Shown: positions 1,513 through 28,363, numbered from the stretch's first letter. The stretch: DNA of 32,000 bases from Thermoproteus sp. (GCA_038893495.1 JAWARJ010000001.1:1011824-1043823), one strand, 5' to 3'. Translations and numbers: made by a program. Notes: generated from the letters alone by a model not told the origin.

Positions 1513-4089
1513 CTAACGTCCGCGGGGCCTGGAGGGCCACCAGTTGTACTTAGCTAGGAGATTCATTATGGCCGGCACTAAGAAAGGCCTCACGATATAG
1601 GCGTCAAAGATTGCCGAAAATGCGACAGTCGCGCCTACTTGTTGGAGGACTGTGAGCTGGGACTGCACTATGGATAGAAAGGCCAGGGCCAGTATGAGCG
1701 CCGCGCCGGTGACTATGGGGCCTGTGGTCACTATGGCGGTCTTTATGGCGGCCCTATCGTCCAATCCTCTCTCTACCTCCTCTCTGATCCTGGTGACTAT
1801 AAATACGTCGTAGTCCGTCCCGACTGCAATCAGCAAACTGGTGAGGACTACCGGCTGGAGCCAGTAGGTGAGCTGGCCCCCTAAGATCTGAAACAATGCG
1901 ATGTTCAACGTGAGCCCCCAAACTAGAGACATCAAGACTGTCGCCACGAGTCTCAACGGCGTCAAGAGGCTCCTAAGCGCCACCATTAAAGTCAATATTA
2001 CAGTTAATAATACTATATATATTTGGAAATTCCAGAAATATAAGTATATATATGTATAATAGACGTGTTTCCAGCCGGCGTCTCCACCTATATACAACAA
2101 GCCGAATTTCCTCAAGGCCGTTAAATTGTTATATACATATAACAATTCATCTGACGTACTTGTTACAGATAACTTTAGTGAAATAATATAATAATTTTCT
2201 CTTGTAAATATAGTATAATTAGTATAGTATGGAAGTTTTGTTATATAGTTTATGACAGTGGAGTTAGGCCTTTGTGTAAAGACTAGATATGTCGTCGAGA
2301 GGGCAGTTACGTTCTTGAAGTAGGTCTGGGCTATATGGAGCGCCTTTTTGCTCTCTATATCTGGCATCGCCGATATGGGATTGGTAGTTATCTTCAAGTG
2401 AGATATAGCGAATAGGGCCAGCGCAAGCGTGGCGACGGTCGCTATCGCTATTATCGTTCTGGACCTCGAAAGGGCGATGTCTACAGCCTTGGCTAAGAAC
2501 TTAGAGCGGCCCTCGTGTAGCCTTATGTCTTCTATCCTTCTGGGCCAAAAAGCCTTGTCGTCTAGGAGGGTCAGCAACGCGGGCGTTGCGGTGAAGGCCG
2601 TCGTTAACACCAACAAGACTGCCAGCGCCAGCGTCAGCCCTATAGTCTGCATGAAGGGCAGTAGCGAAAAGCCGAAGCTACCCAAGGCGAGGCCTGCGAC
2701 TATCGCGCTAGTCAGTATTGCACGCTTGCCGAAACTCAAGACGGTGGAAATCGCCTCGTCGGGCCCCGCCCCTCTATTCCTCTCCTCCGCGTATCTGCCC
2801 AACATCAAGAGGTTGTAGTCCACGCCTAGGGCGAACACTACAGGCGCCGCTATGTAGACCGAAAGGTAGTATGGAGCTATATACGGCGAGATCAAATAGA
2901 CGAGCCCCAGTAGCGCCAGATACGAAAGCCCGACTTCCGCCAAAACCAACAGAGGCGCCACTATCGTGCCGAAGACGAAGAGCAGTATCGCCAACATAAC
3001 TATGGAGGTGGTCTTGTCTATCTCAGGCACTTCTGAAGTCACTATATCCGTAAATTGGGACATAAGCACATCGGTCGACACGGGGACCGCCCAGCTGTAA
3101 TTAAGCCGGGGGGCCCCGCTACCGTTAACTATCACCAATGCGTACTGGTCGCCGTAGAGCAACTGTCTGGCTTGAGTTATTGTGTACATGGTCGGTGGTG
3201 GGTATTCCGTCGTTAAGTTCTGTAGGAGGGCCTCCTTAAACGCGGCGAGGGCCTCGTCGGTCCTATTTACACATAGGATGTAGGGTAGGTAGGGCCTTAG
3301 CTCCGGCGGGAGCTTTGAGGAGAGCTGTAGGAATATGTATTTCTCCACCCCTAGCTCTGTGATGTTTTCGGCGAGACCTATTAGGGACGAATTGAGCCTA
3401 GTGGAGAGAATCCTTTCGGCTATTAGATCTATAGAGCTCTGCGAGGCCCAATTCCTCCATGTTATATTTTGTAGCAACCAACTCAAATTGCCGTATGCCC
3501 TATCTGCGGCTAATCTAATCGCCGTGTCTACGTCGTAGTACCTAGAGTAGTTTCTGTAGTACTCCAAAAAGCGCTCGGTCTGGGGCGTCGATATGTTGAA
3601 TAGGGTGGCTCCATATGTGGCGTATAGGAGCGCCGTCGCGTTGTTACGCGCCGTCTCGTAGGCCTCCTTTAGTTCATCTAGGAGTTTGCACTGAGTATTT
3701 GTAACATTATAAATTCTATTTAAATTATTAAAGAAATAGTTTGTTATATTATTTATTGTATTATTAATTTTATTCCAATATATTTTTTGTGCAGTATATT
3801 GTATAGTGAGTGGCGAAATTATATCATATCCTTCCGAGGACAGCGTTTTGTTCAGCTCGCTTAGTCTGTCCTGTAGGTCGGGACCGTAGACTAATATAAA
3901 TGTTATACTATTATTAGATGTAGATGTATTATTTATTATTTTATTTACTATATTTGGTTTTACATTTTTCGGCATAAGTTTTGATTCTGAATAAACAAGA
4001 ACTCCAAATACTTTGCCCGAATGTATTGCCAGATAGGAGTAGGTAGCCAGCCACAAGGCCAGCAGGGCGTAGGCGAGGAGCTTATTCAC
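1513..4089 (-). CDS. MMPL/RND-superfamily membrane exporter
   Basis: 858-aa ORF with a GTG start. It has an N-terminal TM (LLAYALLALWLATYSYLAI), then a ~330-aa N-X-S/T-rich extracytoplasmic domain, then two multi-TM blocks. Each block carries the MMPL hallmark (GVDYNLLMLGRYAEERNRG; GTDYDVFIVTRIREEVERG). Confidence 0.85.
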   Translation of the reverse strand: MNKLLAYALLALWLATYSYLAIHSGKVFGVLVYSESKLMPKNVKPNIVNKIINNTSTSNNSITFILVYGPDLQDRLSELNKTLSSEGYDIISPLTIQYTAQKIYWNKINNTINNITNYFFNNLNRIYNVTNTQCKLLDELKEAYETARNNATALLYATYGATLFNISTPQTERFLEYYRNYSRYYDVDTAIRLAADRAYGNLSWLLQNITWRNWASQSSIDLIAERILSTRLNSSLIGLAENITELGVEKYIFLQLSSKLPPELRPYLPYILCVNRTDEALAAFKEALLQNLTTEYPPPTMYTITQARQLLYGDQYALVIVNGSGAPRLNYSWAVPVSTDVLMSQFTDIVTSEVPEIDKTTSIVMLAILLFVFGTIVAPLLVLAEVGLSYLALLGLVYLISPYIAPYYLSVYIAAPVVFALGVDYNLLMLGRYAEERNRGAGPDEAISTVLSFGKRAILTSAIVAGLALGSFGFSLLPFMQTIGLTLALAVLLVLTTAFTATPALLTLLDDKAFWPRRIEDIRLHEGRSKFLAKAVDIALSRSRTIIAIATVATLALALFAISHLKITTNPISAMPDIESKKALHIAQTYFKNVTALSTTYLVFTQRPNSTVINYITKLPYYTNYTIFTRENYYIISLKLSVTSTSDELLYVYNNLTALRKFGLLYIGGDAGWKHVYYTYIYLYFWNFQIYIVLLTVILTLMVALRSLLTPLRLVATVLMSLVWGLTLNIALFQILGGQLTYWLQPVVLTSLLIAVGTDYDVFIVTRIREEVERGLDDRAAIKTAIVTTGPIVTGAALILALAFLSIVQSQLTVLQQVGATVAFSAIFDAYIVRPFLVPAIMNLLAKYNWWPSRPRGR

Positions 4090-4095
4090 GAGGCA

Positions 4096-4123: not shown

Positions 4124-5260
4124 GTGGCTTACCGCCATATCGCCATGTTGGCGCTCAGCGACTTAAAAGCCAGGAGGACGCGCTATGTGCTTCTGGCCGT
4201 AGTGATAGCCATAGGGGCAGCCTTAATGGTGGCCTTGAGCACCATAAGCGTCGGCGCCAAGATTTATGTACAGGACCAATTATATCAAATATTTCCAGCT
4301 GATATACTTATTTATTCTAACTCTATAGATATACCATATGCATTTATATCTACATTAAGGACATTGCCGTATGTACAAAACGCCGAGCCTGTAGTCATGT
4401 TAACAGGCTCTCTGGGCAATAAGACCGTAACCATATTGGGGGTTCCCCTCAGCGATATCGGCTATTTCGATGTGGAGCTACAAGAGGGGAGGCTACCTCA
4501 CGGCAGTGGCGAAGCCGTCGTGGAGGCTGCTCTCGGCTTACAGCCGGGGCAGACGGCGACCATAGCGGTGTATCAGAGCACCATCGCTCCTCCGACCGAC
4601 CTCAAGGTGACTGTGGTGGGCGTTATGAGCAACTTGTTGAAGGGCTTTATAGGGCCTATGAGCCTCAACCTAGTGGTCGTGCCGCTGGACTGGCTACAAC
4701 AACAATTGGGCCTCGGCGATTTTTACAACATGGTCTTTATAACTCTGAAGGATAAGTCGCTCATACAGCCGTTAGCCCAGGCTCTGAAGGCCAGATTTCC
4801 CCAGGCCGAGGTGTACACCCAACAGAGCGCTCTGTCCACTGTAGACAGGGTGTTCAACATGTTGAATATCTTCTTTTTGGTTATCGAGGTGATAGCGTTT
4901 TTGGCCGGCGCCTTGACTACCTTCACCGTGATGTCGATCACTGTGAGGGAGCGTATGGGGGAGGTGGCGTTGTTGAAGGCGACCGGCATTTCGGGTAGAG
5001 ATATAGCGCTGACCTTCATGTTGGAGGTATTAGTAGTGGGGCTCGTGGGCGGGATCGTCGGCGGCGTGGCCGGCTATTTCGGCGCCATAGGCGTCAAGTA
5101 TTTGTTGATAAAAGCGGGCTATTCCTTCGATGTGCCAATACCCTTCATGCCGTCCTTCTTTGCGCTCGGCGTAGTCCTCTCGTTGTTGGTAGCTCTGGCC
5201 GGCGCCTTGATGCCCATATATAGGGCCGTGTCGTTAAGGCCTCTTGAAATATTGAGATGA
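4124..5260 (+). CDS. ABC transporter permease, FtsX/MacB type
   Basis: 378 aa. TM1 (YVLLAVVIAIGAALMVALSTISV), a ~200-aa extracytoplasmic domain, then three C-terminal TMs (4-TM MacB/LolC/FtsX topology; VRERMGEVALLKATGISGRDI loop). The start is ambiguous: GTG 4124 or ATG 4145 (MLALSDLKARRTRY). It overlaps the downstream ATPase gene by 4 nt. Confidence 0.85.
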   Translation: MAYRHIAMLALSDLKARRTRYVLLAVVIAIGAALMVALSTISVGAKIYVQDQLYQIFPADILIYSNSIDIPYAFISTLRTLPYVQNAEPVVMLTGSLGNKTVTILGVPLSDIGYFDVELQEGRLPHGSGEAVVEAALGLQPGQTATIAVYQSTIAPPTDLKVTVVGVMSNLLKGFIGPMSLNLVVVPLDWLQQQLGLGDFYNMVFITLKDKSLIQPLAQALKARFPQAEVYTQQSALSTVDRVFNMLNIFFLVIEVIAFLAGALTTFTVMSITVRERMGEVALLKATGISGRDIALTFMLEVLVVGLVGGIVGGVAGYFGAIGVKYLLIKAGYSFDVPIPFMPSFFALGVVLSLLVALAGALMPIYRAVSLRPLEILR

Positions 5261-6021
5261 CCGACGCGGTATATCTAGAAAACGTACATAAGGTCTATCG
5301 GACCGCCGCAGGCGAGGTGCATGCGTTGAGGGGAGTTACTCTGAGGATACCTAAAGGCGCCATGGTGGCGTTCATGGGCCCCTCTGGGTCAGGCAAGACG
5401 ACGCTTTTGAATATCATATCGTCTCTCGACAAGCCCACCAGCGGGAAGGTGATAGTACTCGATACGGATGTGACGAAACTAGACGAAAAGAGCCTCGAGA
5501 GGTTCAGACTGCACAAAATAGGGTATTTATTCCAGTCGTACAACTTAGTGCCCTACCTCACGGCCTTGCAGAACGTCGAACTGCCTATGTTGGCCGCCGG
5601 TATGCCTAGAGATCTAGCTAAAGCTAAGGCCAAGTTGTTGTTGAGGCTGGTGGGCCTCGAGGACTCAGCCGACAGGCTCCCCATACAGCTGTCCGGCGGC
5701 ATGCAACAACGCGTAGCTCTGGCCCGCGCGCTCGCCAACAGCCCCGAGCTTTTAATACTAGACGAGCCTACCTCCAATATAGACCTAGACAATGCCTCTA
5801 TTATACTCAGCTTAATTCTGGCTCTCAATAAGATTTGGGGGAGCACAGTGCTGATAGCCACACACGACCCTGACGTGGCGGCCGTAGCGGACAAGGTCTA
5901 TACGGTCAGAGGGGGCTACGTGACGGACGGCGGCGTGCCTAAAGGCGAGATAAAAATCGATGTGGACAAGGCGAAAGAGATTTATGAAAAGATTAGGGCT
6001 ATAGATTCGGCATGGCAATAA
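5257..6021 (+). CDS. ABC transporter ATP-binding protein (MacB/LolD-like)
   Basis: Walker A GPSGSGKTT, signature LSGGMQQR, Walker B LLILDEPT, H-loop IATHD. Confidence 0.95.
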   Translation: MTDAVYLENVHKVYRTAAGEVHALRGVTLRIPKGAMVAFMGPSGSGKTTLLNIISSLDKPTSGKVIVLDTDVTKLDEKSLERFRLHKIGYLFQSYNLVPYLTALQNVELPMLAAGMPRDLAKAKAKLLLRLVGLEDSADRLPIQLSGGMQQRVALARALANSPELLILDEPTSNIDLDNASIILSLILALNKIWGSTVLIATHDPDVAAVADKVYTVRGGYVTDGGVPKGEIKIDVDKAKEIYEKIRAIDSAWQ

Positions 6022-7853
6022 GGGCAGTAATTTTGACGCTACTAATCGCGGCGTTGGCGTGGACCGCCGAGCCCACTCTGCTTATTTCATCTACGGCGTC
6101 CTATAGCGGCTCTATTTCTACTACATATCAATATATGTACTTCGTTGTGAATAATTCATCCAAGCCTCTAGAGTTTTTTGGACATATAGTGCCGCCCTAC
6201 GGAGCAAGTCTCATTTATGTGCCCGTCAACGGATCATATCCCCCTCCAATTGCTATATTCTACAATATAACCTATATTAATTCATCATTAATAAATAATA
6301 TATTGTACTGTAATAATAACTCTATTATAACAATTGATATAAAAATAAAAAATTATATGCCCTTCGAAGTCCCCGTAACTATATTAATCCAAAAGACGTC
6401 TGGCATAGACTTTATCAGCAACACTACGCCGTCGGGAATAGAATCCCTAGGGGGCTCTACGATATACCAATGGACCTTCCTCGTCGCGGACAGCCGCACG
6501 TTTTCGGTGTCCTATAGGATAAGAAATTTCGGCGATTTCGGCGCGGTCAGCCTGCCGCCTGTGGAGATCATATCCACTATAGATCTATCTGGCTATATCG
6601 ACCAGACAGAACAATCTATTGCTTTATTAAATAATACTTATAACTATCTGAATAATTTAACATATGCAGTAAATATATTCAATAATGTAGTATATAACAC
6701 TACAAATAATCTTGATAACCTAGTAAGGCTGTTAAATTTGAGCTCCACGGCATTTAGGGAGGGCGTCAGGGGGCTTAACGCCTCGCAGTATGTAATATAT
6801 GCGTTAAACGCCCAGCTGTCGGCGATGGCCTCCTCGTTAATGGGAGTAGCGTCTACTCTAAATAGAAGCCTCCTATTAGTCCAGTACGAATACGCCTATT
6901 TAGTGACTCTATCCAACGCTCTGGCGGCCCAGGCGACGGCCATAAACGCCTATGAGAATTCGCTCTCGACGACAGTAGCGACGCTTAACTCCATAGAGGG
7001 CAACCTCGCAACTATTTATTCTTCCCTACAAAATATAGAAAATTCTATCAATTCAATTTATTTAAATCTTTTATATCTAAAACAAAAAATTAATCAGATA
7101 AAATCTAATAATACATTAATTGAAAACGCTACTGAGGGACTAAACAGGCAACTAGATTACGCCATAGCGGTGGTACAGAGCGCCCAGTCGACTATAAGCT
7201 CGGCGGAGGCCTCCGTAGGAGCATTGATGAATATAGTCTCCAACACGAAAAACGCGCTTATAAAGATAGGCGGCCAGTTGGGAGAGGTCGAGGGCGTCCT
7301 CAACCAGACGGCCATAGCAACTAAACAGAACGCCACCGCCATGCTCGAAGAACTGCCGCCTGTGATACTTAACGCGTCGAAGGCCTTGACGTATATAGCC
7401 AATAATCTCACCTTGACGGCGAGCCAAGTGGGCCAGATGGCAGGCCCTATAAACAGCGGCGTCAAATACTTAACGTCGGCGGCATCTATGTTGTCGTATA
7501 CGGCCGACGAGATAGAGGCCGTCTCTAGCGCCATGAAGGGCGAACTGCCCTATATAGGTCTAGTAGATTCAATTGTTTCTAATTATAGATATAATATCAC
7601 AAAATCTATCCAAAGGTCTCAATATTTTATTTCTATAGCAAATACCTATAAAAATATATATGGAACTGGCTCTATTAGATATAGTATGACTATAAGCCTT
7701 CCCACAGCCGTAAACCCATCAAAGTTTATGTTTAATATAACCACGCCGGCCGCATCTCAGGGGAGCGGAGGCAATATAAATTCTATATATTTTCTATTAA
7801 TAATTATAATTGGTATATTAGCTACAATTTCTATTATATTGAAAATTAAATAA
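6012..7853 (+). CDS. Secreted, C-terminally membrane-anchored, N-glycosylation-sequon-rich helical-repeat surface protein (function unknown)
   Basis: 613 aa with an N-terminal signal-like segment (AVILTLLIAALAWTA) and a C-terminal TM (IYFLLIIIIGILATISIILKIK). I hand-counted about 20 N-X-S/T sequons. The central region is a long N/Q/S/A/L-rich helical segment. The start overlaps the ATPase stop by 10 nt, suggesting translational coupling. Confidence 0.75.
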   Translation: MAIRAVILTLLIAALAWTAEPTLLISSTASYSGSISTTYQYMYFVVNNSSKPLEFFGHIVPPYGASLIYVPVNGSYPPPIAIFYNITYINSSLINNILYCNNNSIITIDIKIKNYMPFEVPVTILIQKTSGIDFISNTTPSGIESLGGSTIYQWTFLVADSRTFSVSYRIRNFGDFGAVSLPPVEIISTIDLSGYIDQTEQSIALLNNTYNYLNNLTYAVNIFNNVVYNTTNNLDNLVRLLNLSSTAFREGVRGLNASQYVIYALNAQLSAMASSLMGVASTLNRSLLLVQYEYAYLVTLSNALAAQATAINAYENSLSTTVATLNSIEGNLATIYSSLQNIENSINSIYLNLLYLKQKINQIKSNNTLIENATEGLNRQLDYAIAVVQSAQSTISSAEASVGALMNIVSNTKNALIKIGGQLGEVEGVLNQTAIATKQNATAMLEELPPVILNASKALTYIANNLTLTASQVGQMAGPINSGVKYLTSAASMLSYTADEIEAVSSAMKGELPYIGLVDSIVSNYRYNITKSIQRSQYFISIANTYKNIYGTGSIRYSMTISLPTAVNPSKFMFNITTPAASQGSGGNINSIYFLLIIIIGILATISIILKIK

Positions 7854-7854
7854 T

Positions 7855-8037
7855 TCATTTAGTTTTAATTGTAATGTATTTAGCATAAATTGAGCAACCA
7901 GAGCCGCCGTTATTGCAGTACTTCTCCAACTGGCCTCTACTCGCCCTCCACTCTTCCGGCGGCATCAAGATGCACCTCACGCCGTCGGCTGTAGGTCTGT
8001 ACATGGGGCAACGCATGGCTATATATAATGGGGGCAA
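7855..8037 (-). CDS. Small Cys-containing hypothetical protein (uncertain)
   Basis: 60-aa ORF with a TTG start; an alternative ATG at 8016 gives MRCPMYRPTADGVRC...KYCNNGGSGC. It has four Cys and fills an otherwise empty 194-nt gap. There is no recognisable family and no clear promoter. Confidence 0.3.
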   Translation of the reverse strand: MPPLYIAMRCPMYRPTADGVRCILMPPEEWRASRGQLEKYCNNGGSGCSIYAKYITIKTK

Positions 8038-8047
8038 TTAAAGCTTC

Positions 8048-8599
8048 GTGGACGAGTGCGAAAAGGTAAATGAGCACATAGCGGATAGGGGCTTTAAGGT
8101 GGTCGAGAGGAGACGCGACTTCTTATACGCGGCGCTGGGCGGCCTGTACGTATCCTTTTGGTGTCCCGAGAGGAGCCACATATTCGACGTAGATCCCCTG
8201 GAGCTTGCGGAGGGCTTAAAGCTGTCCGCCAGCGATGTGCTAATAGTAGTCGCCTATAGGCCGTATCTGATAATAGACGAACTCCAGAGCGTTGTAGATA
8301 GGATACATAGATGGTATGGGAGGGACTTCGGCGTGAAAATCATAGGCGTTAACGCCTCCGACCTAGAGGCTGGGCTGGAGGAGGCGGTGGGCCACGCCAT
8401 GGCCTATAGGCCTTTCAAGATAGGGCAGGGCGTCGAGACGGGCGAGTTGTGTCCCAACTGTACGAAGTCGCCCCTGAGGATTTACGTCTCCGAGAGGCTC
8501 TTCTCGGCTAAATACAAGTCTATGGTGAGCCACCTGATATTCGCCTGCCCCTCCTGCGGCTTGAGGATCAGGAGAGTTGAAATGCTCAGCCAAATATAG
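8048..8599 (+). CDS. Hypothetical protein with C-terminal zinc ribbon
   Basis: 183 aa with a GTG start ~20-29 nt downstream of the TATA-like CTATATATAAT (8019-8029). The C-terminus has CPNC...CPSC (a four-Cys ribbon). Codon usage looks like the neighbouring genes. Confidence 0.6.
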   Translation: MDECEKVNEHIADRGFKVVERRRDFLYAALGGLYVSFWCPERSHIFDVDPLELAEGLKLSASDVLIVVAYRPYLIIDELQSVVDRIHRWYGRDFGVKIIGVNASDLEAGLEEAVGHAMAYRPFKIGQGVETGELCPNCTKSPLRIYVSERLFSAKYKSMVSHLIFACPSCGLRIRRVEMLSQI

Positions 8600-9515
8600 G
8601 CTCCGCCTTGGGGTCTATTGCGGAGATCACAGAGTCGAGTATGCCTGGGAGCTCCGCCTTGGTGGCCCTCTTCTTAATCACGGTCACCGACGCGCCTCTA
8701 TGGCCCCCGCCGCTTCCGCCTAGAAGCGAGCCTATTCTAGCCGCCATGGCGCCGACATCCACGCGTTGAGACCTATAGACTATCCTGACCTCGTCTTTAT
8801 GGCGCGACGCGACTATCGCCACGTCGCACCCTACAGACACTAACATGGAGGCCACATCGGCCTCGTACGCATCGACATGGGTGGCACAGACGAGGCCAAT
8901 GGAGGTCTTGTAGGCCTTTAATCTAATCAGCGACTTCAGTTTGGCGATCTTCAATGAGGGGTCTTCTTCCTGCCTGCCCACATAACGCTCCAGCGGGCCT
9001 ATTTCCGAGACGGCGTAGGCAAGAGCCCTCAACGTCCTGTCGTCGGCCCTCAGGAGTTTCGCGGTGTCGAAATAGACGCCCAGCGCCGCGGCCACGAGGG
9101 AGTTCTTGCTGGGCTTCACTCCTGCCTCTAGGGCTGTCTCCAGAGCCATCTCGCTACAACTAGGCCTTTCGTCTCTCACCCCTGGAAGCGCATCGCCTAC
9201 GGCGTGGTGGTCGAATAGGAGGACCAAGGCGTCCTTTACCTCCGGGACCTGGGACAGAGAGGCCACGTCGGCTAGAACTACGGCCTCCGTCCCCTGGGGG
9301 ATCTCCTCGCGGCATTCCGCATACGGTCTGGCCTCCTTAGAGGCGCCTTCAGGGCACACCACTACGGCCTCATAGCCGAGGCCCGCCAAGACGTCTTTAA
9401 GCACCTCTGCGCACCCCAAGGCGTCTAGGTCCGCATGTCTGTGAGTCACTATGGCCACCTTACGTCGATTCCCCAAGGCGTCTAAGAGCCTCCTTAAGTA
9501 CACGCCTCTTGTCAT
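8586..9515 (-). CDS. DHH/DHHA1-family phosphoesterase (NrnA/RecJ-like)
   Basis: Motif I THRHADLDALG, an intact DHH motif (LLFDHHAVGD), and the DHHA1 motif GGSGGGHRGA. 309 aa. Confidence 0.85.
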   Translation of the reverse strand: MTRGVYLRRLLDALGNRRKVAIVTHRHADLDALGCAEVLKDVLAGLGYEAVVVCPEGASKEARPYAECREEIPQGTEAVVLADVASLSQVPEVKDALVLLFDHHAVGDALPGVRDERPSCSEMALETALEAGVKPSKNSLVAAALGVYFDTAKLLRADDRTLRALAYAVSEIGPLERYVGRQEEDPSLKIAKLKSLIRLKAYKTSIGLVCATHVDAYEADVASMLVSVGCDVAIVASRHKDEVRIVYRSQRVDVGAMAARIGSLLGGSGGGHRGASVTVIKKRATKAELPGILDSVISAIDPKAEPIFG

Positions 9516-9804
9516 CGCCCGGCTTTATAACGCCTTCTTTAATCATATCGGCAACAACGACGCCCAGCTCGGCGGCCCTCTCCACCACTCGGTTCAGCCT
9601 CTCGTCCTCCACGAGGGGGCTAGCGCCGGCGTCTACCGACACCTCTACCGAGTCGCCCCTAAAGGCCACTTCTATTTCCGCCTCGAAGAAGTCGTCGCCC
9701 AGCTCTCTAGATATGTATTCGTATATTATTTCTGTGATGTATTCAGCTATATCAGCCTCCTCCCTTAGCGGGGGCTGTTGGTTGCGCTCCTCCCGCTCCC
9801 CCAC
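9460..9804 (-). CDS. Small acidic conserved hypothetical protein (possible DUF3194-like superoperon member)
   Basis: 114 aa, with GTG as the only canonical start. It is acidic, with a protein-like alpha/beta pattern. The family assignment rests on position next to pfdB and on memory only. Confidence 0.55.
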   Translation of the reverse strand: MGEREERNQQPPLREEADIAEYITEIIYEYISRELGDDFFEAEIEVAFRGDSVEVSVDAGASPLVEDERLNRVVERAAELGVVVADMIKEGVIKPGDDKRRVLKEALRRLGEST

Positions 9805-20715: not shown

Positions 20716-20829
20716 AATATTATATTTGTATATAATTCTTATTCATTATAAATATAATAAAAATTTTATATATATCCAGAGGGGCGGTATATGCAATAAA
20801 TAGTTATATATAGGTCTCAAGATAACGTC

Positions 20830-21837
20830 ATGGAAGGCGAGGTCCGTAAGGTTCAGCTCACGGGCGGAGCCACCCTCATAGTCAGCCTCCCTAAGGAGTG
20901 GGCTCGACGAACCAACTTATCGCCGGGAGATGAAGTCCTCATAGTGCCTCAGCCCGACAACACGCTGGTTTTAATACCGCGGAAGTTGGGCAAGCGCGCC
21001 TCTCTGACTGTGGAGTTGAATGTAGACGACAAAATGTCCGTTGAGGAGCTAGAGAAGGTCTTCATGGCGGTCTATATAGCTGGCGCCGAGGTCATATCCG
21101 TTAAGTTCGCCCCTGGGGCTACCCAATATAGGAAGCACCTAAAGGACTTCGTCAGGAGGAGGGTTATAGATATGGAGATAACAGAGGAGTCCAGCGACAG
21201 ACTCGTCATACAGGCGATGGTCTCCGCCACGGAGCTTGCAGTAAAAGACGTCACGGTCAAGATGTTGAAGCTGGCCGACAACATGTTGGCGGACCTCATA
21301 AGAGGTCTAGAGGCCGACAACATGGAGCTCCTAAAGGACGTAGCCGAGAGGGACGACGAGGTAGACAGACTGTACTGGCTTATTGAGCGCCAACTCAAAA
21401 GGGCGGCCATGTCCCGCTACATAATGTTGGAGTTGAAGGTGGAGGATCCCCGCGATCTAGTTGAATACACAATAATAGCCAAATCCATAGAGAGGATTGC
21501 CGACCACATATGTAAAATAGCCTATATCAACCAGGAGGAGAAGATAGACTTGAGGGTCGTCAAGCCCATCTTGGAGAGGGCGATTGAATATATGGGAGCC
21601 GTGCTGGACGCCCTTAGCGGTAGCCTGGACGACGCGAAGCTGACGTGGCTCTACAGGGAGGTGAGCGAGTGGGCGCTAAAAATACGTAAAGAGGGCATAC
21701 CGTCAGATCCGGCTACCTCTCTAGCTAAAGACAGCGCCATAAGGATAAATGAATACATAGGTGACATCTTGGAATCTCTCCTACATATAAGGCTTAAGAC
21801 CTTCCAAAAGTTGGGCGAAGGGGCTCAACTACAATAG
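20830..21837 (+). CDS. AbrB/SpoVT-domain + PhoU-domain phosphate uptake regulator homologue
   Basis: N-terminal swapped-hairpin domain (VQLTGGATLIVSLPKEWARRTNLSPGDEV) and a PhoU-like helical repeat (ERDDEVDRLYWLIERQ; IAKSIERIADHICKIA). Confidence 0.85.
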   Translation: MEGEVRKVQLTGGATLIVSLPKEWARRTNLSPGDEVLIVPQPDNTLVLIPRKLGKRASLTVELNVDDKMSVEELEKVFMAVYIAGAEVISVKFAPGATQYRKHLKDFVRRRVIDMEITEESSDRLVIQAMVSATELAVKDVTVKMLKLADNMLADLIRGLEADNMELLKDVAERDDEVDRLYWLIERQLKRAAMSRYIMLELKVEDPRDLVEYTIIAKSIERIADHICKIAYINQEEKIDLRVVKPILERAIEYMGAVLDALSGSLDDAKLTWLYREVSEWALKIRKEGIPSDPATSLAKDSAIRINEYIGDILESLLHIRLKTFQKLGEGAQLQ

Positions 21838-22318
21838 AGATAATATCCTCAAAGAAGTAATGAAATATTTCTTTATATATAACACGACCCAACACGTTGA
21901 GGGCCTCCTCCACGAAGTCGGCCCTGCCCAAGCTACTAAACGTTAGTACCAACACCTCGGGCCTGTAGGCGGAGGCCCACCTCAACACATTATTAACGAG
22001 ACCGTAGTCGTATATAGCGACGGCCTCCCAATCTGTAGGCGGCTCCTCCGGAGGTAGATACGGGAGGTTGCTCACCACGAGGTCGGCTCTCGATATGGCC
22101 GAAAGCCCGTGGGTGCAGACGACATCATGTCTTTTACATGTAGAACATGCATATGGATTTATGTCTACGGCGACTACCTCCCTACAGAGTTCTCTCAACT
22201 TGTCGGAAAGGATACACGAGCCCGCCCCTACATCAACACATATATTGAAATTTCTATTTAGTTTAGAAAGTACCTTTAAAGTTAATATGCTATCTTCTCC
22301 CGGACTATATATATACAT
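21794..22318 (-). CDS. HemK/Mtq2-like SAM-dependent methyltransferase
   Basis: IYSPGEDSILTL N-terminus, SAM motif VDVGAGSCIL, and NLPY (an NPPY variant). 174 aa. Its 3' end converges on and overlaps the PhoU-like gene by 44 nt. Confidence 0.75.
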   Translation of the reverse strand: MYIYSPGEDSILTLKVLSKLNRNFNICVDVGAGSCILSDKLRELCREVVAVDINPYACSTCKRHDVVCTHGLSAISRADLVVSNLPYLPPEEPPTDWEAVAIYDYGLVNNVLRWASAYRPEVLVLTFSSLGRADFVEEALNVLGRVIYKEIFHYFFEDIISIVVEPLRPTFGRS

Positions 22319-23123
22319 GCAACACTAAATAAATTAATATAGGAAATACAAACATGCCGGATAGATATGCTAGCAACGTAGTTTCGTATTTAGAGCCTAC
22401 GTCGTATGACGTCGTAGTGGCGAGAGTGCCGCACGTCAAGAGCAACAACACGAACTTGAGGGCATAGTCGACGTTGTAGTTCCCTATAGAGGCGGAAATC
22501 GGGGGGTATATCAACAACGGAAATAAGCCTAGGATTGTATGTACTATATCGACTCTTCTACCAGATAGAAAATAAACTAATAATAATATTGATATTAATG
22601 ATATTATAGAGCTAAGAATAATAATAAAAATGTTATTAAACATATCAGTATATATAACGCCCACCAGGGCCTCTCTCGAGAGGTATACAGAGACGATCCA
22701 CGTGGCGAGGAGCAACGCCGCCGTTATTTTCAGATGAGGCGACGCCAACATGGCCACGATGAATGGCCTCAAGCCTAGGACCTCAAGCACTGAGAGCTCT
22801 CTCAGAGGCCCCACCGAGGACAGAATGGAGGCGATCTTGGCGCCTTTATCTGTGAGCTCAACTACGTTGCCGTCCCTCCTCACGAGGCCCAAGGCCTCGA
22901 GCGCCGAGATGTCGAATAGCAGAGCTGACGCCGAAACGCCCAGCCTATCTTTAAGTCTATTCAGCGTGGCGGGGCCCTCGCTGTAGAGCAACAACAAGAC
23001 CTCCCGCCGTCTGCCATAAGCGACTTTATATATTAAATTCTCCACGACGTAGGGGAAGCCCGTGTTTTTAAGGGTATGCCGATTGCCGCCAATGGAGTAA
23101 TCTTTAAAAAAGGGTATTAGCAT
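22305..23123 (-). CDS. Winged-HTH (ArsR-like) domain fused to a polytopic membrane domain
   Basis: RREVLLLLYSEGPATLNRLKDRLGVSASALLFDISALEALGLVRRDG is a wHTH. It is followed by about five hydrophobic helices. The exact start is uncertain because the alba TATA lies within its first codons. Confidence 0.65.
   Translation of the reverse strand: MLIPFFKDYSIGGNRHTLKNTGFPYVVENLIYKVAYGRRREVLLLLYSEGPATLNRLKDRLGVSASALLFDISALEALGLVRRDGNVVELTDKGAKIASILSSVGPLRELSVLEVLGLRPFIVAMLASPHLKITAALLLATWIVSVYLSREALVGVIYTDMFNNIFIIILSSIISLISILLLVYFLSGRRVDIVHTILGLFPLLIYPPISASIGNYNVDYALKFVLLLLTCGTLATTTSYDVGSKYETTLLAYLSGMFVFPILIYLVLHVYI
23102..23113 (+). promoter_or_regulatory. alba TATA box
   Basis: CTTTAAAAAAGG is centred ~25 nt upstream of the alba ATG (23132), suggesting a leaderless mRNA. 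It lies inside the first codons of the divergent ORF 22305..23123. Confidence 0.5.
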
Positions 23124-23851: not shown

Positions 23852-25775
<1,924 letters not shown>

Positions 25776-25809: not shown

Positions 25810-25986
25810 GTGGATCTCTTTAAGATAGTAGAGGAAGAAGTGAGGAGGGGCCTTGAGGGCTCCGACGTTGAGATAGTCCTGAGCCTAATAGAGGCGTACA
25901 GGTCCTCGGGCCCGAAGGGCGCTAGGGACAAACTGAGAGAAATACTCTCACGATGGGGAGTAGATGTGGGCGATATCGAGGATTAA
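25810..25986 (+). CDS. Untracked 58-aa ORF inside the Arcade cluster
   Basis: Manual translation gives VDLFKIVEEEVRRGLEGSDVEIVLSLIEAYRSSGPKGARDKLREILSRWGVDVGDIED*. The GTG is ~23 nt from the centre of the TATA-like AATATAAA (25783-25790). Codon usage is typical (AGG, ATA, GAG). It overlaps the arcadin-4 start by 23 nt and is below the track's length cut-off. Confidence 0.45.
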   Translation: MDLFKIVEEEVRRGLEGSDVEIVLSLIEAYRSSGPKGARDKLREILSRWGVDVGDIED

Positions 25987-28363
25987 ACTAAAGGACTTCA
26001 AGGTATATTCAGGCGAGTACGAACTCGTATTGTCGCCAGTAACCGCCATAGTGGGTAGAGTCGGCGCCGGCAAGTCCTCTCTACTTCAAGCAATAGAGTT
26101 CGCCCTATTTGGAAGGGAGATGGAGACCAGACAGAGGATAGCGAAGCTCGTCGATTTGATAAACATCAATTCGGACAGCGCCTGGGTCGAGCTGGAACTG
26201 ACCGACGGCACCGAGAAGGCCGTAATTAGGCGGAGCCTAAACAGGAGGGGACGTAGCCGCCTAGAGTTGAGGATAAGGGGAGAGAAGCTTTCGGATCTAG
26301 ACGCCGAGGAGAAGCTCAAAGAGATCTCAGGCATCAGTAGCGAGGACTACGATAGAGTAATATATATATCACACTACGCGCTAGAGGACTTCATCCATGG
26401 CGACAAGATAAGAAGGACCTCGCTAATAGATAAAATACTTCAGATCGATATACTAGACAATATACAAAAGTTAATAAATAAATCTATAAAGAACTTATTA
26501 GAAGAAACTGAAAAAATTAGGATAAAAATAGCATATTATGAAAAGTATAGAGATATATTAGAGAAATATGGAAGCATATCCAAGATAAAAGAAGTAAAGA
26601 CATCTTTAGAGAGAGAATTAGAGGAAATTTCTAGACAAGAAAATAATCTATTAACTAGATATAAACAACTTCTAGAAGATAGAAAAAAATACATCGATAA
26701 AATATCAAGGCTACAAGATAAAATAACGGCGTACTACAAGGCCAAATCGGAGCTAGAACTCCTTGAAGAATATGGATATAGCTACAACACAGAGCTAGCC
26801 CAGATAGACGAACTGAAGGACAGATTTCTCGGAATCTTAGCCGAATTCGAACATATAGTGAGCCCGCAGATAGTAGAGGCTATCTCCAAGGAGTCCGACC
26901 CTGCCAGACTGGCTGAGCTCTTTAACGACGCCTATAAGGAGCTCCTAAAGGCCAAGTCGTCTCTAAGCGAACTTTCCTCCTCAATAGAGGCACAACGAAA
27001 TATGTTGCAAACTAAACTAAATGAGTTAAATATAGAAATATCTAAGGTGAGAGCCAAATTAGAACAACTAGATGTCCTATATAAAAAATTTAAGGACTTA
27101 GAATCTAAATACGGGACTATTGAGGAGGTGAGGAGGAAGTTGGAGGCGGCGAGAAGTAGGGCGCAGGAACTGGAGAGGAAGACGCGCTACATCTCGTCTT
27201 TGAGGTTCATACTGTCTTACGCCCTAGAGGCCGGCGTCGAGACGTGTCCTATTTGTGGATCTAAATTGGATAGGAAGGCCGCGTCGTCTAGGCTTGAAGA
27301 GCTGGAGAGAGAATATTCGCAAGAGCTCGCCCAGTTCGAAGAGGCGAAGGGAGAATTGGAGGCGCTAGAGGGGGCATATAGGGATATGGAGTCTCTGCTG
27401 AGCTCCGTCTCTGAGTACTTAAAGGCCAGGGAGGAGCTAGAGAGGCTGAGCGCCGAGGCCGAAAAGATAAAGACGAAACTGGACCAGGCCGCCAAATCGT
27501 CGGCTCAAATATCTCGCCGCCTCTCGCTCCTCTCGGGCTTCTTGGAAGAGGTCACGCCGGAGGTGGTCGAGGAGGTCGTCAAGAGGTACAATAAGGCCCT
27601 CCGGGTCAAACAGCTCCGCGAGGTCTTGGAGTCGGTAGAGCTCGAGTTGAGAAGTCTTGGCGTAAGCGAGGCCGTTTTGGAGTTAGAGGAGGAGTTCAGA
27701 AGGGTCTCTGAAGATCTGGACAAAATAAGGAGGAGGAAGGCCGATATACATAACGAATTGGCGAGGCTATCGGAGGTGCTGGCCAATGTGGACGAGGAGT
27801 TCGAAACCCTTAAGGCGAAATTAGAGAGATTTATTTATGTCCATAATAGACTCAATGATATTTATAATAAATTAAATGTAATAAAGCAGAATGTAAGATT
27901 GAAGGTAATTCAAGAGATACAAGACGAGTTGTGGAACAACTTCCTCAAGATATATCCCTATAAGGACATCACGGCGGTGCGGCTGGCCCTTAGAGACAAC
28001 GCATATGAGGTAGAGGCCGTTACGGCTGACGGCGCCACTATAGGCATATCGAAGTTGAGCGACGGACAGCGGCTGGCGGTAGCCCTCTCGTTGGTTATAT
28101 CTATGCGTAAGCTGTTAGGCCCCAAGCTGGGCTTTCTGCTACTGGACGACCCCCTGCCGTATGTAGACCCCAATGTGCGCTCGGCGCTGGCCGGCCTGAT
28201 AGCGTCTTTAAGCAAGGAGTACCAAGTGGTGGTGGCGACTCAGACCGAAGACTTGCCCAGAGAGATAGCCTCCAACGGCGTCGACGTAGCTGTAGTGGAG
28301 CTGTCTAGGGCCGGGAACAAGCCCGAAGTGACGACTAAACATATATTTGGGAGAAAAGATTAG
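25964..28363 (+). CDS. rkd-4: Arcadin-4 candidate: SMC/Rad50-like coiled-coil ATPase
   Basis: 799 aa. N-terminal Walker A GRVGAGKSSLLQAIEFALFG, a long K/E/L coiled coil, a central CPICG, and C-terminal signature LSDGQRLAVALSL with Walker B FLLLDDPL. No mre11/herA/nurA genes are adjacent. Confidence 0.75.
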   Translation: MWAISRIKLKDFKVYSGEYELVLSPVTAIVGRVGAGKSSLLQAIEFALFGREMETRQRIAKLVDLININSDSAWVELELTDGTEKAVIRRSLNRRGRSRLELRIRGEKLSDLDAEEKLKEISGISSEDYDRVIYISHYALEDFIHGDKIRRTSLIDKILQIDILDNIQKLINKSIKNLLEETEKIRIKIAYYEKYRDILEKYGSISKIKEVKTSLERELEEISRQENNLLTRYKQLLEDRKKYIDKISRLQDKITAYYKAKSELELLEEYGYSYNTELAQIDELKDRFLGILAEFEHIVSPQIVEAISKESDPARLAELFNDAYKELLKAKSSLSELSSSIEAQRNMLQTKLNELNIEISKVRAKLEQLDVLYKKFKDLESKYGTIEEVRRKLEAARSRAQELERKTRYISSLRFILSYALEAGVETCPICGSKLDRKAASSRLEELEREYSQELAQFEEAKGELEALEGAYRDMESLLSSVSEYLKAREELERLSAEAEKIKTKLDQAAKSSAQISRRLSLLSGFLEEVTPEVVEEVVKRYNKALRVKQLREVLESVELELRSLGVSEAVLELEEEFRRVSEDLDKIRRRKADIHNELARLSEVLANVDEEFETLKAKLERFIYVHNRLNDIYNKLNVIKQNVRLKVIQEIQDELWNNFLKIYPYKDITAVRLALRDNAYEVEAVTADGATIGISKLSDGQRLAVALSLVISMRKLLGPKLGFLLLDDPLPYVDPNVRSALAGLIASLSKEYQVVVATQTEDLPREIASNGVDVAVVELSRAGNKPEVTTKHIFGRKD

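Follow-up and report, generated by a model that had tools for sequence, protein, structure and literature searches.

Local AT-rich DNA that opens inside the cell has been described in Thermococcus kodakarensis: in cells lacking reverse gyrase, AT-rich regions melt in vivo, and the Thermococcus enzyme peaks at sharp AT-rich sites (bioRxiv 10.64898/2025.12.08.692931). It can use bubbles down to 38 nt (bioRxiv 10.64898/2025.12.08.692931; 10.64898/2025.12.08.692955) and is active just upstream of gene starts and after stops (bioRxiv 10.64898/2025.12.08.692955). In Thermoproteus tenax, three many-gene regions of less than 47% G+C, with glycosyltransferase and ABC-transporter clusters, were described without evidence of a low-GC donor (PMC3189178). 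We analyzed a 32,000-nucleotide stretch of Thermoproteus DNA, called the window here, in which low G+C takes a different form.

AT-rich islands in the window and across the genome

A first-pass annotation of the window had claimed about 20 sharp AT-rich islands and listed 22. We called islands with a two-state HMM over the whole genome (1.995 Mb, 56% G+C) and recovered all 22, with coordinates within a few bases and near identity in cases such as 1985-2061, 3696-3829, 15649-15752 and 18437-18524; the 100-nt G+C profile dips to 0.13-0.26 where they had been placed. Two more that had been missed, 21827-21882 and 31598-31685, brought the number in the window to 24 (Table 1). Most are inside open frames, and four extend to a gene end or into intergenic DNA (7773-7891, 20659-20812, 21827-21882 and 22240-22355).

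Table 1. AT-rich islands of the window, with their G+C content, location and the analyses in which they appear.
Start	End	Strand	G+C (%)	Location	Evidence
1985	2061	-	16	In frame, MMPL transporter gene (1513-4089, minus), second extracytoplasmic loop	HMM; Pfam MMPL; conserved in six Thermoproteus orthologues
2121	2253	-	20	MMPL gene (1513-4089)	HMM; orthologue alignment
3696	3829	-	16	MMPL gene, first extracytoplasmic loop	HMM; alignment; spanned by independent metagenome contig
3892	4014	-	20	MMPL gene, directly past TM1	HMM; orthologue alignment
4278	4358	+	21	FtsX/MacB-type permease gene (4124-5260)	HMM; Pfam; spanned by contigs from 2 metagenome runs (one RNA-labelled)
6248	6358	+	14	613-aa envelope protein gene (6012-7853)	HMM
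6610	6739	+	21	613-aa envelope protein gene	HMM; spanned by metagenome contig
7010	7126	+	15	613-aa envelope protein gene	HMM
7551	7695	+	23	613-aa envelope protein gene	HMM
7773	7891	+	13	3' end of 613-aa envelope protein gene (stop 7853) and 38 nt past it	HMM
15649	15752	+	12	UPF0201/RNA_binding gene (15445-15921)	HMM; Pfam; cross-species GC3
16816	16923	-	19	373-aa gene without family assignment (16079-17200)	HMM; cross-species
17446	17521	+	14	ThiN-domain regulator gene (17085-17978), junction of N-terminal part and ThiN domain	HMM; Pfam; cross-species
17679	17781	+	17	Within ThiN domain of regulator gene (17085-17978)	HMM; cross-species
18437	18524	+	18	Topo VI subunit B (18026-19612)	Alignments; cross-species
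20659	20812	+	16	Last 19 codons of Topo VI subunit A (stop 20715) and spacer to PhoU-domain gene (start 20830)	HMM
21827	21882	.	20	Overlapping 3' ends of convergent genes (20830-21837 plus; 21794-22318 minus)	HMM
22240	22355	-	23	Junction of HTH regulator gene 3' end and methyltransferase gene 5' end	HMM
22534	22657	-	19	272-aa HTH regulator gene (22305-23123)	HMM; cross-species
25257	25324	+	25	206-aa gene downstream of actin-family gene; recent	HMM; cross-species
26424	26726	+	23	Coiled coil of SMC-like 799-aa protein (25964-28363); longest, 303 bp; recent	HMM; cross-species
26998	27111	+	25	SMC-like 799-aa protein gene	Cross-species
27818	27922	+	22	SMC-like 799-aa protein gene	HMM; cross-species
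31598	31685	.	24	Almost entirely intergenic, between radical SAM gene and next gene	HMM

Genome-wide, the HMM found 491 islands covering 2.9% of the sequence, with a median length of 102 bp and ~21% G+C against ~57% in the rest of the genome; they are 75-88% A+T across 55-303 bp (elsewhere, 43% A+T), and the lengths of genic islands peak at 100-140 bp. They are clustered without regular spacing, and their density differs ~10-fold among genome regions, the window ranking within the top 2%; of the genome's 20-kb windows, only 5.3% hold none. The superoperon said to be free of them is indeed empty by HMM from 7891 to 15649, as are the actin-family gene (23861-25168) and the radical SAM gene (29868-31592), and the most conserved operons lack islands as well. 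Domain matches (Pfam MMPL and others) also bore out that the hosts comprise envelope proteins and cytoplasmic proteins (Topo VI-B and the ThiN, UPF0201-type and SMC-like proteins), and hosts that are not membrane proteins also include TGT and a V-type ATPase subunit. A TM-like segment is found in 45% of island genes versus 30%, and most island genes do not encode membrane proteins.

Within genes, islands are spread uniformly. Occupancy is maximal at -50 to 0 of gene starts, at 10.5% versus ~1.4% in gene bodies, and is 5.9% directly past stops, an enrichment of ~7-fold just upstream of starts and ~4-fold just after stops. The 137 intergenic islands resemble the genic ones in size class and composition (0.25 versus 0.23 G+C).

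In the parts that they cover, contigs from three other hot-spring metagenome runs span islands with zero differences; one run is RNA-labelled, may contain DNA, and says nothing on transcription. These runs represent essentially the window strain, with ~20 differences per 20 kb, all transitions and none in islands, which are too few for use as polymorphism. Because independent contigs cross the islands and other Thermoproteus genomes share their positions, they are not an assembly artefact.

Composition at the nucleotide level

The proposal that the signal lies in the nucleotides and goes beyond the protein was upheld by synonymous sites and by shuffles. GC3 drops for every amino acid, from ~0.7 outside to 0.1-0.3 inside islands, and the G+C content of four-fold sites is 0.205 inside, 0.651 in flanks and 0.748 elsewhere. 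The synonymous switches that had been described are all present: among Leu codons, the share of TTA is 45% inside versus 9% outside, among Arg codons that of AGA is 62% versus 23%, and the move to GAA and AAA appears as a GC3 of 0.11 versus 0.76 for Glu and 0.29 versus 0.68 for Lys. Islands thus hold a local excess of rare synonymous codons beyond amino-acid demand. In genes with at least 50% G+C, 70 real islands compare with 1-4 after codon shuffling and 12-15 after synonymous shuffling (~5 to 20 times fewer in shuffles); for all genes, the numbers are 266 real, 154-162 synonymous-shuffled and 81-103 codon-shuffled.

The edges are as sharp as claimed. Both GC3 and GC12 step within 12 nt at most (6-12 nt or less), GC12 going from 0.46 to 0.25, and flanks in host genes have a GC3 of 0.55-0.78. 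Frames do stay open across islands, with no in-frame stop in the 6,831 codons of 185 fully genic islands versus 3.9-14 stops per 100 codons in their other five frames. GC3 is flat at 0.70-0.76 where GC12 is at least 0.35, collapsed where GC12 is below 0.25, and bimodal at 0.25-0.30: at equal local GC12, a segment is in one of two alternative states, GC3-high or GC3-collapsed.

Rare-codon translational pause clusters had been put forward as one explanation; on this reading, runs of A/U-ending, all-weak codons would slow the ribosome for folding or membrane insertion. Island codons are the rare ones of this genome, orthologues within the genus have islands at the same positions, and membrane proteins are enriched among the hosts. 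However, codon positions 1 and 2 and the amino acids are shifted too, as in an MMPL TM helix recoded from A/V/T/L to I/L/F/N in the orthologue alignment; islands of the same kind occur in non-coding DNA and cross gene ends; most hosts (Topo VI-B, TGT and the V-type ATPase subunit among them) are not membrane proteins; and no consistent relation to domain borders is seen. Since the amino acids are AT-driven and equal islands are intergenic, pausing is insufficient as the whole story, and we consider it quite improbable.

Searches for sequence content gave little. All-against-all blastn of the 491 islands yielded 144 weak, mostly short matches versus 66 for shuffled sequences and no family; the islands are not alike, which rules out a repeat or mobile element. 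TRF reported two weak hits only, no Rfam match at the gathering threshold and no tRNA was found, and there was neither AA/TT periodicity nor an A-tract excess that would indicate helical phasing. N-glycosylation sequons occur at 1.06 per 100 aa versus 0.83 expected from island composition, a minor effect; this small excess, and the cytoplasmic location of most island proteins, led us to reject a role in glycosylation.

The TATA-like strings seen in the islands had suggested internal or antisense promoters. Taken with other transcription signals, this reading has TATA/BRE-like sites inside genes serving downstream genes or antisense RNAs, or T-runs stopping transcription. Each island does hold many matches to the local BRE/TATA matrix, occupancy peaks ahead of starts and past stops, and some window islands lie 3' in a gene ahead of the next start (7551-7891, 20659-20812 and 22240-22355). 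Nevertheless, motifs are not enriched beyond composition: across 111 islands deep inside genes, sense hits number 845 (908±38 in dinucleotide shuffles) and antisense hits 660 (724±25), slightly below expectation on both strands, by only ~2.6 SD for antisense hits. T-runs are neither enriched nor depleted in islands, and we found no orientation bias. The uniform positions along genes also speak against promoters, as does the compactness of the genome's own, with AAA at -32 to -30 and TTTAAA at -27 to -21 in surroundings of ~50% A+T. Transcription signals are therefore an improbable explanation in our judgment.

Inheritance and substitution patterns

The host genes belong to the core set and keep their synteny across the loci compared, five from Thermoproteus and six from Pyrobaculum. 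Alignment with orthologues, at loci mapped with blastn, showed that islands are homologous segments replaced base for base and not insertions. Indels are absent at islands except for one of 2 residues in one MMPL island; with no length variation relative to orthologues beyond these 2 residues and only two weak tandem-repeat hits, low-complexity insertions find no support.

Six window islands are common to all five Thermoproteus species sampled, and their Pyrobaculum counterparts are GC-normal. The UPF0201 island has a GC3 of 0.03-0.18 in the five Thermoproteus, 0.47-0.72 in GC-rich Pyrobaculum species and 0.34 in a 41% G+C Pyrobaculum MAG. In the Topo VI-B segment, GC12 is 0.19-0.28 in all species compared and the peptide is conserved across genera; its GC3 ranges over 0.10-0.24 among five Thermoproteus and over 0.48-0.79 among five Pyrobaculum species, and is 0.24 in the 41% G+C MAG, whose flanks, at 0.39, are low too. 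Between species that share ~70% DNA identity, islands keep their positions and lengths.

Four other window islands are of recent origin out of GC-normal sequence. Sister-species GC3 is 0.82 at island 25257-25324, and the segment orthologous to 26998-27111 has a GC3 of 0.76-0.87 and a GC12 of 0.50-0.54 in two sister species. Island 21827-21882 occurs in the window genome and in its nearest relative only. At the protein level, five old islands have amino-acid identities of 0.16-0.34 to Pyrobaculum WP30 versus 0.37-0.56 for their flanks, and the Topo VI-B island 0.72 versus 0.83. Within Thermoproteus, four old islands are conserved as much as their own flanks, and the Topo VI-B island (0.83 versus 0.94) and that of the 272-aa HTH regulator (0.44 versus 0.69) less so. 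These comparisons suggest that islands arise in bursts and then persist by descent.

A very low-GC donor, such as a relative, virus or plasmid, that contributed short patches by gene conversion or recombination would account for the sharp, patch-like edges, and Thermoproteaceae of 33-38% G+C are present in metagenomes. Yet, of the window islands, only that in Topo VI-B has an orthologue in the low-GC MAG loci compared, and it is 0.59-0.72 identical to low-GC relatives versus 0.60-0.68 for its flanks, no better than shared composition predicts, and its amino-acid identity equals that of the flanks. Islands are dissimilar to one another, are inherited vertically, and diverge at third positions like the remainder of the gene. 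To our knowledge, at 12-25% G+C across all codon positions they lie below the coding DNA of any archaeon. The absence of a donor signal and the equal-length, homologous replacement largely refute this idea, which we hold to be very improbable. A horizontally acquired AT-rich genomic island was likewise rejected, given the 102-bp median, edges inside genes, syntenic core hosts and the lack of a donor signal at the loci compared.

We counted substitutions relative to the nearest relative, which is 88% identical. Third positions have diverged by 0.21 inside islands and 0.27 outside, which argues for neither hypermutation nor extra conservation inside; at first and second positions, divergence is 1.7 times faster inside. 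By arithmetic, per-site S>W rates are ~3 times higher and W>S rates ~3 times lower inside than outside, close to a model with a bias of ~2.4 (4Nes units) outside islands and none within them. The outside/inside ratio of transition divergence is 1.09 ± ~0.11, and does not separate neutrality inside (0.96 predicted) from AT being favoured inside (1.21 predicted). Recent islands carry 63 S>W versus 13 W>S changes, and transitions make up 79% of the S>W changes; since the flanks have a similar share (73%), island birth bears no special mutational signature. We rejected polarisation with 74%-identity outgroups as biased, because the outgroup state at saturated sites mirrors local composition.

Explanations of the islands and their relation to known systems

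Thermoproteus grows optimally at ~85-90 °C. By nearest-neighbour calculation at 0.3 M salt, the temperature at which stacking free energy is zero is 76-83 °C for islands and 93-99 °C for most flanks (window median, 94.6 °C), and at 88 °C islands stand at +10 to +37 kcal/mol. For naked, relaxed DNA, with supercoiling, polyamines and chromatin proteins left aside, islands are thus predicted to lose stability below growth temperature and most flanks only above it. Of the DNA-level ideas in the first-pass annotation, thermal melting fits best, by this calculation and by the Thermococcus experiments, with a role in vivo that would follow by analogy; promoters did not hold up. Its statement that no known feature type explains the islands stands, as no catalogued type fits, and in the literature that we searched, short in-frame AT-rich islands are not described for Thermoproteus or Pyrobaculum.

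The explanation that we tentatively place first, while giving it somewhat less than even chances, is that islands are 60-300 bp patches outside the regime that maintains G+C, near an AT-biased mutational equilibrium and limited only by protein function. They would not be elements with a sequence-specific function. Outside them, a pressure for G/C would act at free sites (GC4 0.75), with selection or biased repair or conversion as candidates; inside, it would be absent, free sites would sit near the mutational equilibrium of ~0.2 G+C, and weakly constrained residues would drift to AT-only codons (I, K, N, Y, F and TTA-Leu). Purifying selection would keep the frame open, and the peptide once an initial burst of change is over. 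Duplex stability at growth temperature may couple the sites of a patch: in a ~100-bp cooperative unit that is unstable at ~85-90 °C, single G:C pairs would cease to matter, so that the patch would decay and sharpen its own edges. Reverse gyrase and ssDNA-binding proteins would have to hold such patches closed or tolerate them. Several points go against this release from G/C pressure, among them the rate ratio, which also allows for AT being favoured inside, and the naked-DNA basis of the stability calculation. Some recent islands fell from a GC12 of 0.50-0.54 and a GC3 of 0.76-0.87, which a passive threshold does not easily permit, and islands persist across the genus although some cost is expected, because each holds several promoter-like sites and T-runs are not depleted.

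Alternatively, islands may be selected DNA-level elements, thermolabile patches kept AT-rich for the cell's use as entry or sensing sites for reverse gyrase, torsional-stress sinks or chromosome-folding boundaries; we find this unlikely, if less so than the other alternatives. Only composition and length would matter, and therefore no motif is expected. The conserved positions and lengths, the length peak of genic islands, births from GC-normal sequence in which many amino-acid changes were accepted, the calculated stability and the enrichment at gene starts and stops, where Thermococcus reverse gyrase acts, are in keeping with it, as is the binding of that enzyme to sharp AT-rich peaks. However, the irregular spacing, the variation in density and the absence from the most conserved operons are not, GC4 inside has the value that mutation bias alone would give and not a lower one, and synonymous turnover inside is about as fast as outside. 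Against both this and the passive reading, two other GC-rich Thermoproteota genomes of hyperthermophile size (54% and 57.6% G+C) had no islands in samples of 2 × 20 kb, and in one of the two, low-GC12 windows show no collapse of GC3. These 40 kb per genome are the sampling beyond the family and islands are clustered, so other samples leave presence or absence undecided. Since both genomes were sampled without islands, and so few 20-kb windows of the Thermoproteus genome are free of them, high temperature and high G+C are insufficient, and a lineage factor is needed.

In its full form, the selected reading has Thermoproteaceae DNA existing in two heritable ~100-bp compositional states, the collapsed one being a selected thermolabile-bubble device, which seems doubtful to us. 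That the cell would maintain bubbles even in essential genes, at the cost of recoded proteins, is similarly hard to credit. By analogy, such bubbles might serve entry or sensing by reverse gyrase or ThermoDBP, or buffer torsion at 85-95 °C, a proposal that we also regard as rather unlikely.

If the passive reading is true, islands expose the raw mutational equilibrium (~20% G+C) beside sequence with a GC4 of 0.75, provide a within-gene control for what keeps prokaryotic genomes GC-rich, and imply that the GC-keeping force works on whole blocks and not site by site. If they are selected, they represent a new class of composition-only DNA element, and high-temperature DNA physics dictates protein sequence, residues being recoded so that the DNA melts. 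On either reading, they are precise targets for maps of melting or reverse gyrase in hyperthermophiles in vivo. They also call for caution with gene finders, codon-usage models and detectors of horizontal transfer on such genomes.

The islands share with the T. kodakarensis regions a local A+T excess in a hyperthermophile and a melting point predicted to lie close to growth temperature or under it. Sites of this kind include promoters and terminators, and reverse gyrase in Thermococcus recognises the denatured state and not a motif. Those regions are mostly kilobase-scale, horizontally acquired genes of 55-75% A+T in a 52% G+C genome (bioRxiv 10.64898/2025.12.08.692931; 10.64898/2025.12.08.692955). 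In contrast, the Thermoproteus patches are ~100 bp, 75-88% A+T, in frame in vertically inherited core genes and bounded by step edges. Within the genus, the ABC-transporter region of T. tenax resembles the 4.1-7.9 kb cluster of the window; that report describes no mosaic of ~100-bp collapsed patches and no patches in genes like Topo VI-B (PMC3189178).

Like conserved rare-codon clusters, islands string together rare synonymous codons at places that orthologues share, but amino-acid composition and non-coding DNA are equally affected, and the unit is therefore DNA composition and not codon choice. With blocks of AT-rich directional mutation (fungal RIP and the A+T bias of prokaryotes) they share G:C to A:T changes, mostly transitions, and a low equilibrium; RIP acts on duplicated DNA at the kilobase scale and destroys genes, whereas islands are single-copy, ~100 bp long and keep their frames. 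Finally, they recall the Asn/Lys-rich inserts of Plasmodium, N/K/I/Y-rich stretches in conserved proteins that are driven by DNA composition. Those inserts vary in length and are often repetitive, whereas the islands are homologous, equal in length and non-repetitive, and lie in a GC-rich genome.

Detection and genomic placement of the islands

G+C content dipped repeatedly to 13 to 26% across the window in a 100-nt profile. We called these AT-rich islands with a two-state hidden Markov model (HMM) over the whole genome that holds the window, a single contig of 1,995,394 bp with 56.0% G+C derived from a hot-spring metagenome; the window spans positions 1,011,824 to 1,043,823 of this contig. 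The HMM returned 491 islands amounting to 2.9% of the sequence, with a median length of 102 bp (interquartile range, 65 to 135) and a median G+C of 0.21, versus 0.57 for the rest of the genome. All 22 islands listed by eye in the first-pass annotation were recovered with coordinates that differ by no more than a few bases; two additional calls brought the total in the window to 24 (table). Ranked by these counts among the 32-kb windows of its own genome, the window reaches the 98th percentile for island density.

An assembly error was rejected, as contigs of three other metagenome runs span several islands with zero differences and separately sequenced genomes have islands at matching positions. 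Between positions 3606 and 21396, contigs of four other runs showed 20 single-base differences from the window, all of them transitions and none in an island, which is too few for a test. A library (X5) with the label "seawater metagenome, TRANSCRIPTOMIC RNA-Seq PolyA" includes contigs 99 to 100% identical to the Thermoproteus genome (window 1901 to 21900). This match looks like cross-contamination or mislabelling and is unusable as evidence of transcription.

Genome-wide, 215 islands lie within genes, another 139 cross the end of a gene, and the remaining 137 lie between genes. Occupancy is 10.5% in the last 50 nt ahead of a start codon, 5.9% just past stops, and approximately 1.4% in gene bodies. 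Genic islands are uniformly positioned along the gene, with a length peak at 100 to 140 bp, and island density varies approximately 10-fold among 50-kb bins. Membrane proteins are moderately enriched among island-bearing genes (45% versus 30%). Nevertheless varied in function, the hosts include Topo VI-B, the ThiN regulator, the UPF0201-type and SMC-like proteins, a V-type ATPase subunit, a tRNA-guanine transglycosylase, and a protein kinase. The cluster at 4124 to 7853, encoding an FtsX-type permease, an ABC ATPase, and a 613-residue envelope protein, contains six islands. Two divergent host ORFs, 16079 to 17200 (minus strand) and 17085 to 17978 (plus strand), overlap at their listed 5′ ends by 115 nt, and the true start of one or both is probably further downstream.

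The conserved-gene block at 8000 to 15600, read in the first-pass annotation as an exosome/proteasome superoperon devoid of islands, is indeed free of them, the HMM calling none between 7891 and 15649. In addition, G+C at 4-fold degenerate sites (GC4) is 0.65 in the flanks within island-bearing genes versus 0.75 for the genome. Together, these two observations suggest that islands avoid the genes under the strongest GC-favoring pressure.

Islands of the window with a distinct history or detection status (window coordinates; rows with an empty host cell give the island only)
Host	Host gene	Island	Status
UPF0201-type protein	15445-15921		Old
373-residue protein	16079-17200 (minus)		Old
ThiN regulator	17085-17978 (plus)		Old (two islands)
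Topo VI-B	18026-19612		Old
HTH regulator (272 residues)	22305-23123		Old
SMC-like protein (799 residues)	25964-28363	27818-27922	Collapsed in one more distant Thermoproteus as well
		21827-21882	Recent; missed in the first-pass annotation, called by HMM
		25257-25324	Recent
		26424-26726	Recent
		26998-27111	Recent
		31598-31685	Missed in the first-pass annotation, called by HMM

A switch-like state at the nucleotide level

The proposal that the signal lies at the nucleotide level withstood comparison with shuffled controls. Genes with at least 50% G+C contain 70 islands, versus 12 to 15 when synonymous codons were shuffled within each gene and 1 to 4 when codons were shuffled; for all genes, the numbers are 266, 154 to 162, and 81 to 103, respectively. 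G+C at third codon positions (GC3) is lower in islands for every amino acid (e.g., from 0.76 to 0.11 for Glu, 0.68 to 0.29 for Lys, and 0.78 to 0.24 for Ala). The codon switch that had been noticed by eye is borne out: TTA accounts for 45% of Leu codons inside islands versus 9% outside, and the AGA share of Arg codons is 62% versus 23%. GC4 is 0.205 in islands, 0.651 within 150 nt outside them, and 0.748 elsewhere. On the coding strand, 4-fold sites genome-wide favor C (0.43) over G (0.32) outside islands and A (0.45) over T (0.35) inside; hence, transitions applied to the outside composition do not yield that of the islands.

Both GC3 and G+C at positions 1 and 2 (GC12) change in a step at island edges, within 6 to 12 nt or less (mean of 271 intragenic edges). 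Measured in 30-codon windows (n = 36,024), GC3 stays level at 0.70 to 0.76 as long as GC12 is at least 0.35, is bimodal at GC12 values of 0.25 to 0.30, and 0.14 to 0.27 where GC12 is below 0.25. The relation of GC3 to GC12 is switch-like. Their frames stay open, as first described: the 6,831 codons of 185 fully genic islands include no in-frame stop, and the other five frames have 3.9 to 14 stops per 100 codons. At that density a frame of approximately 35 codons would remain open by chance with a probability of approximately 1%, showing that islands are maintained as coding sequence. These results support a heritable state of DNA that is block-wise and composition-only and that disregards coding status apart from the upkeep of open frames.

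Several known types of element were considered. The 491 islands share no repeat family, and searches of the islands ruled out tandem repeats and RNA genes. Alignments of the MMPL and Topo VI-B proteins show residue-for-residue replacement of homologous segments, which argues against insertions. Neither helical AA/TT periodicity nor an excess of A-tracts was found in islands. The genome's own promoters are compact, with AAA at -32 to -30, TTTAAA at -27 to -21, and approximately 50% A+T around them. Upstream regions genome-wide have a leaderless layout, with AAA (BRE) and TTTAAA (TATA) placed relative to the start codon and no Shine-Dalgarno-like signal between. Internal or antisense promoters had been proposed to account for the islands; a matrix of the genome's own promoters scored slightly fewer matches in deep intragenic islands than in dinucleotide shuffles, and runs of five or more T residues were not depleted there.

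Birth and inheritance of islands

Alignment with orthologues, the check proposed in the first-pass annotation, was informative in the 8- to 30-kb syntenic block. There, five of five Thermoproteus genomes have six islands in the collapsed state that are GC-normal in GC-rich Pyrobaculum species ("old" in the table); a Pyrobaculum metagenome-assembled genome (MAG) with 41% G+C is low at two of these as well, and so are its flanks. Four others are collapsed only in the genome of the window and its closest relative ("recent"), and the same segments in two sister species have GC3 values of 0.43 to 0.87 and GC12 values of up to 0.54. It follows that islands arise from normal sequence and are passed on by descent thereafter.

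Amino acid identity to Pyrobaculum sp. WP30 is 0.16 to 0.34 in five of the six old islands versus 0.37 to 0.56 in their flanks, and 0.72 versus 0.83 for Topo VI-B. Within Thermoproteus, four old islands are conserved to the same degree as their flanks, and those of Topo VI-B (0.83 versus 0.94) and the HTH regulator (0.44 versus 0.69) less so. In these alignments, the history of an island is a burst of change and then stasis. Recent islands were built by 63 changes from G or C to A or T (S>W) versus 13 in the opposite direction (W>S). Transitions make up 79% of the S>W changes, similar to the flanks (73%), and by this measure no special mutational signature was seen.

The cleanest two-state case is Topo VI-B, whose amino acid sequence also assigns the genome of the window to the genus Thermoproteus (95% identity to a Thermoproteus MAG). 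Its residues 138 to 166 (IYEYKLMIDTTKNEPIIVDVKEYDNKY) form a peptide conserved in Pyrobaculum, with a GC12 of 0.19 to 0.28 in every species compared. GC3 of this segment is 0.10 to 0.24 in five Thermoproteus species versus 0.48 to 0.79 in five Pyrobaculum species, where it resembles that of its own flanks; the Pyrobaculum MAG with 41% G+C has a value of 0.24 and low flanks as well (0.39). One in-frame TAG is reported in each of two Topo VI-B matches in other genomes (G002:C1:643835-645397 and G040:C1:1223903-1225438). In one striking case, transmembrane helix 7 of MMPL reads SRSRTIIAIATVATLALALFAISHLKITT with GC-normal codons in the genome of the window, and YSKILLILFVIITLILIIFIINNIRITT or similar with AT-only codons at the same 28 positions in four other Thermoproteus species.

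Gene conversion from a low-GC donor had also been suggested, and no donor was visible. Nucleotide identity of Topo VI-B to Thermoproteaceae MAGs with 33 to 38% G+C is 0.59 to 0.72 in the island versus 0.60 to 0.68 in the flanks, and amino acid identity is equal in the two.

Substitution rates, lineage distribution, and duplex stability

Rates come from a comparison with the closest relative, to which 21.6 kb align at 88% identity. Divergence at third positions is 0.212 inside islands versus 0.266 outside, divergence at first and second positions is 1.7-fold faster in islands, and the transition:transversion ratio is 5.7 inside versus 2.8 outside. By our arithmetic on the counts, islands have a per-site S>W rate approximately 3 times that of the outside and a W>S rate approximately one-third of it. 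Mutation alone, for instance through extra deamination in islands, leaves the lower W>S rate unexplained. A two-parameter model, with a single AT-biased mutation process (equilibrium G+C of approximately 0.17) and a fixation bias toward G/C of approximately 2.4 (4Nes units) outside and none inside, predicts near-equal W<>S flux (outside/inside ratio, 0.96). Milder mutation bias combined with selection for A/T inside predicts 1.21, and the observed transition-divergence ratio of 1.09 is compatible with either model.

Of the readings considered, we tentatively favor the one in which islands are patches that escaped from a GC-maintaining pressure and sit at mutational equilibrium. Duplex stability at the growth temperature could then couple the sites of a patch and make the state self-reinforcing. 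A selected function that depends on composition only is in our view less likely but still has some weight, given the birth of islands from clearly GC-normal sequence, their persistence despite likely costs, and their restriction to a lineage. The promoter, donor, and translational pause-cluster explanations rank below both.

Similar islands occur in two further Thermoproteus and seven Pyrobaculum genomes (1 to 4.3 low-GC segments per 10 kb in 60- to 200-kb samples), often in dense mosaics. One mosaic of Pyrobaculum sp. WP30 (L070:8938-17786; genome, approximately 908.9 to 917.8 kb) has 18 islands of approximately 100 to 130 bp in 9 kb, and another Pyrobaculum mosaic (L035:4248-12948) has 11 in 9 kb, alternating with GC-normal sequence. 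A 58.5% G+C genome of another family of the class has few islands. In 40-kb samples of other Thermoproteota, eight islands were counted in a 1,669,696-bp genome, and 10 and 16 in two members of a further family; none was found in those of two genomes of 1,843,267 bp (54% G+C) and 1,297,538 bp (57.6% G+C), the second of which keeps a GC3 of 0.73 even where GC12 is low. As only 5.3% of 20-kb windows of the genome of the window are free of islands, these two zero samples are meaningful, whereas the others are too small to be decisive. A 50-kb sample of E. coli K-12 (51% G+C) has three short islands (52 to 63 bp), all intergenic. The island-free GC-rich Thermoproteota samples argue that high G+C and high temperature are insufficient and that some lineage factor matters. 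A candidate lead for this factor is ThermoDBP, which is reported to have replaced the canonical SSB in Thermoproteales (PMC4041433). The genome of the window (G000) has a ThermoDBP-family gene (G000:C1:1912023-1912235, stretch L114; PF10015, 92 bits). The T. tenax genome paper describes only three extended low-G+C regions (PMC3189178), and no account of short in-frame islands turned up in a full-text literature search; within the literature covered, the phenomenon is undescribed.

Thermoproteus grows optimally at approximately 85 to 90°C. We calculated duplex stability for naked, relaxed DNA with SantaLucia nearest-neighbor parameters at 0.3 M salt. The calculation leaves out positive supercoiling, polyamines, and chromatin proteins and therefore gives a rank order rather than the state in the cell. 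Calculated stacking free energy reaches zero at 76 to 83°C for islands and at 93 to 99°C for most left flanks, or 84 to 92°C where these abut another island or are GC-poor; the median over the window is 94.6°C. At 88°C, the island duplex is predicted to be unfavorable by +10 to +37 kcal/mol, and all left flanks but two favorable by 0 to 37 kcal/mol. By analogy, the premise of melting has in vivo support from Thermococcus kodakarensis. In that archaeon, loss of reverse gyrase leads to recruitment of RPA to AT-rich regions, i.e., to melting, and the enzyme itself has its occupancy peaks on sharp AT-rich sites and accepts bubbles of 38 nt (bioRxiv 10.64898/2025.12.08.692931), acting locally at promoters and terminators (bioRxiv 10.64898/2025.12.08.692955).
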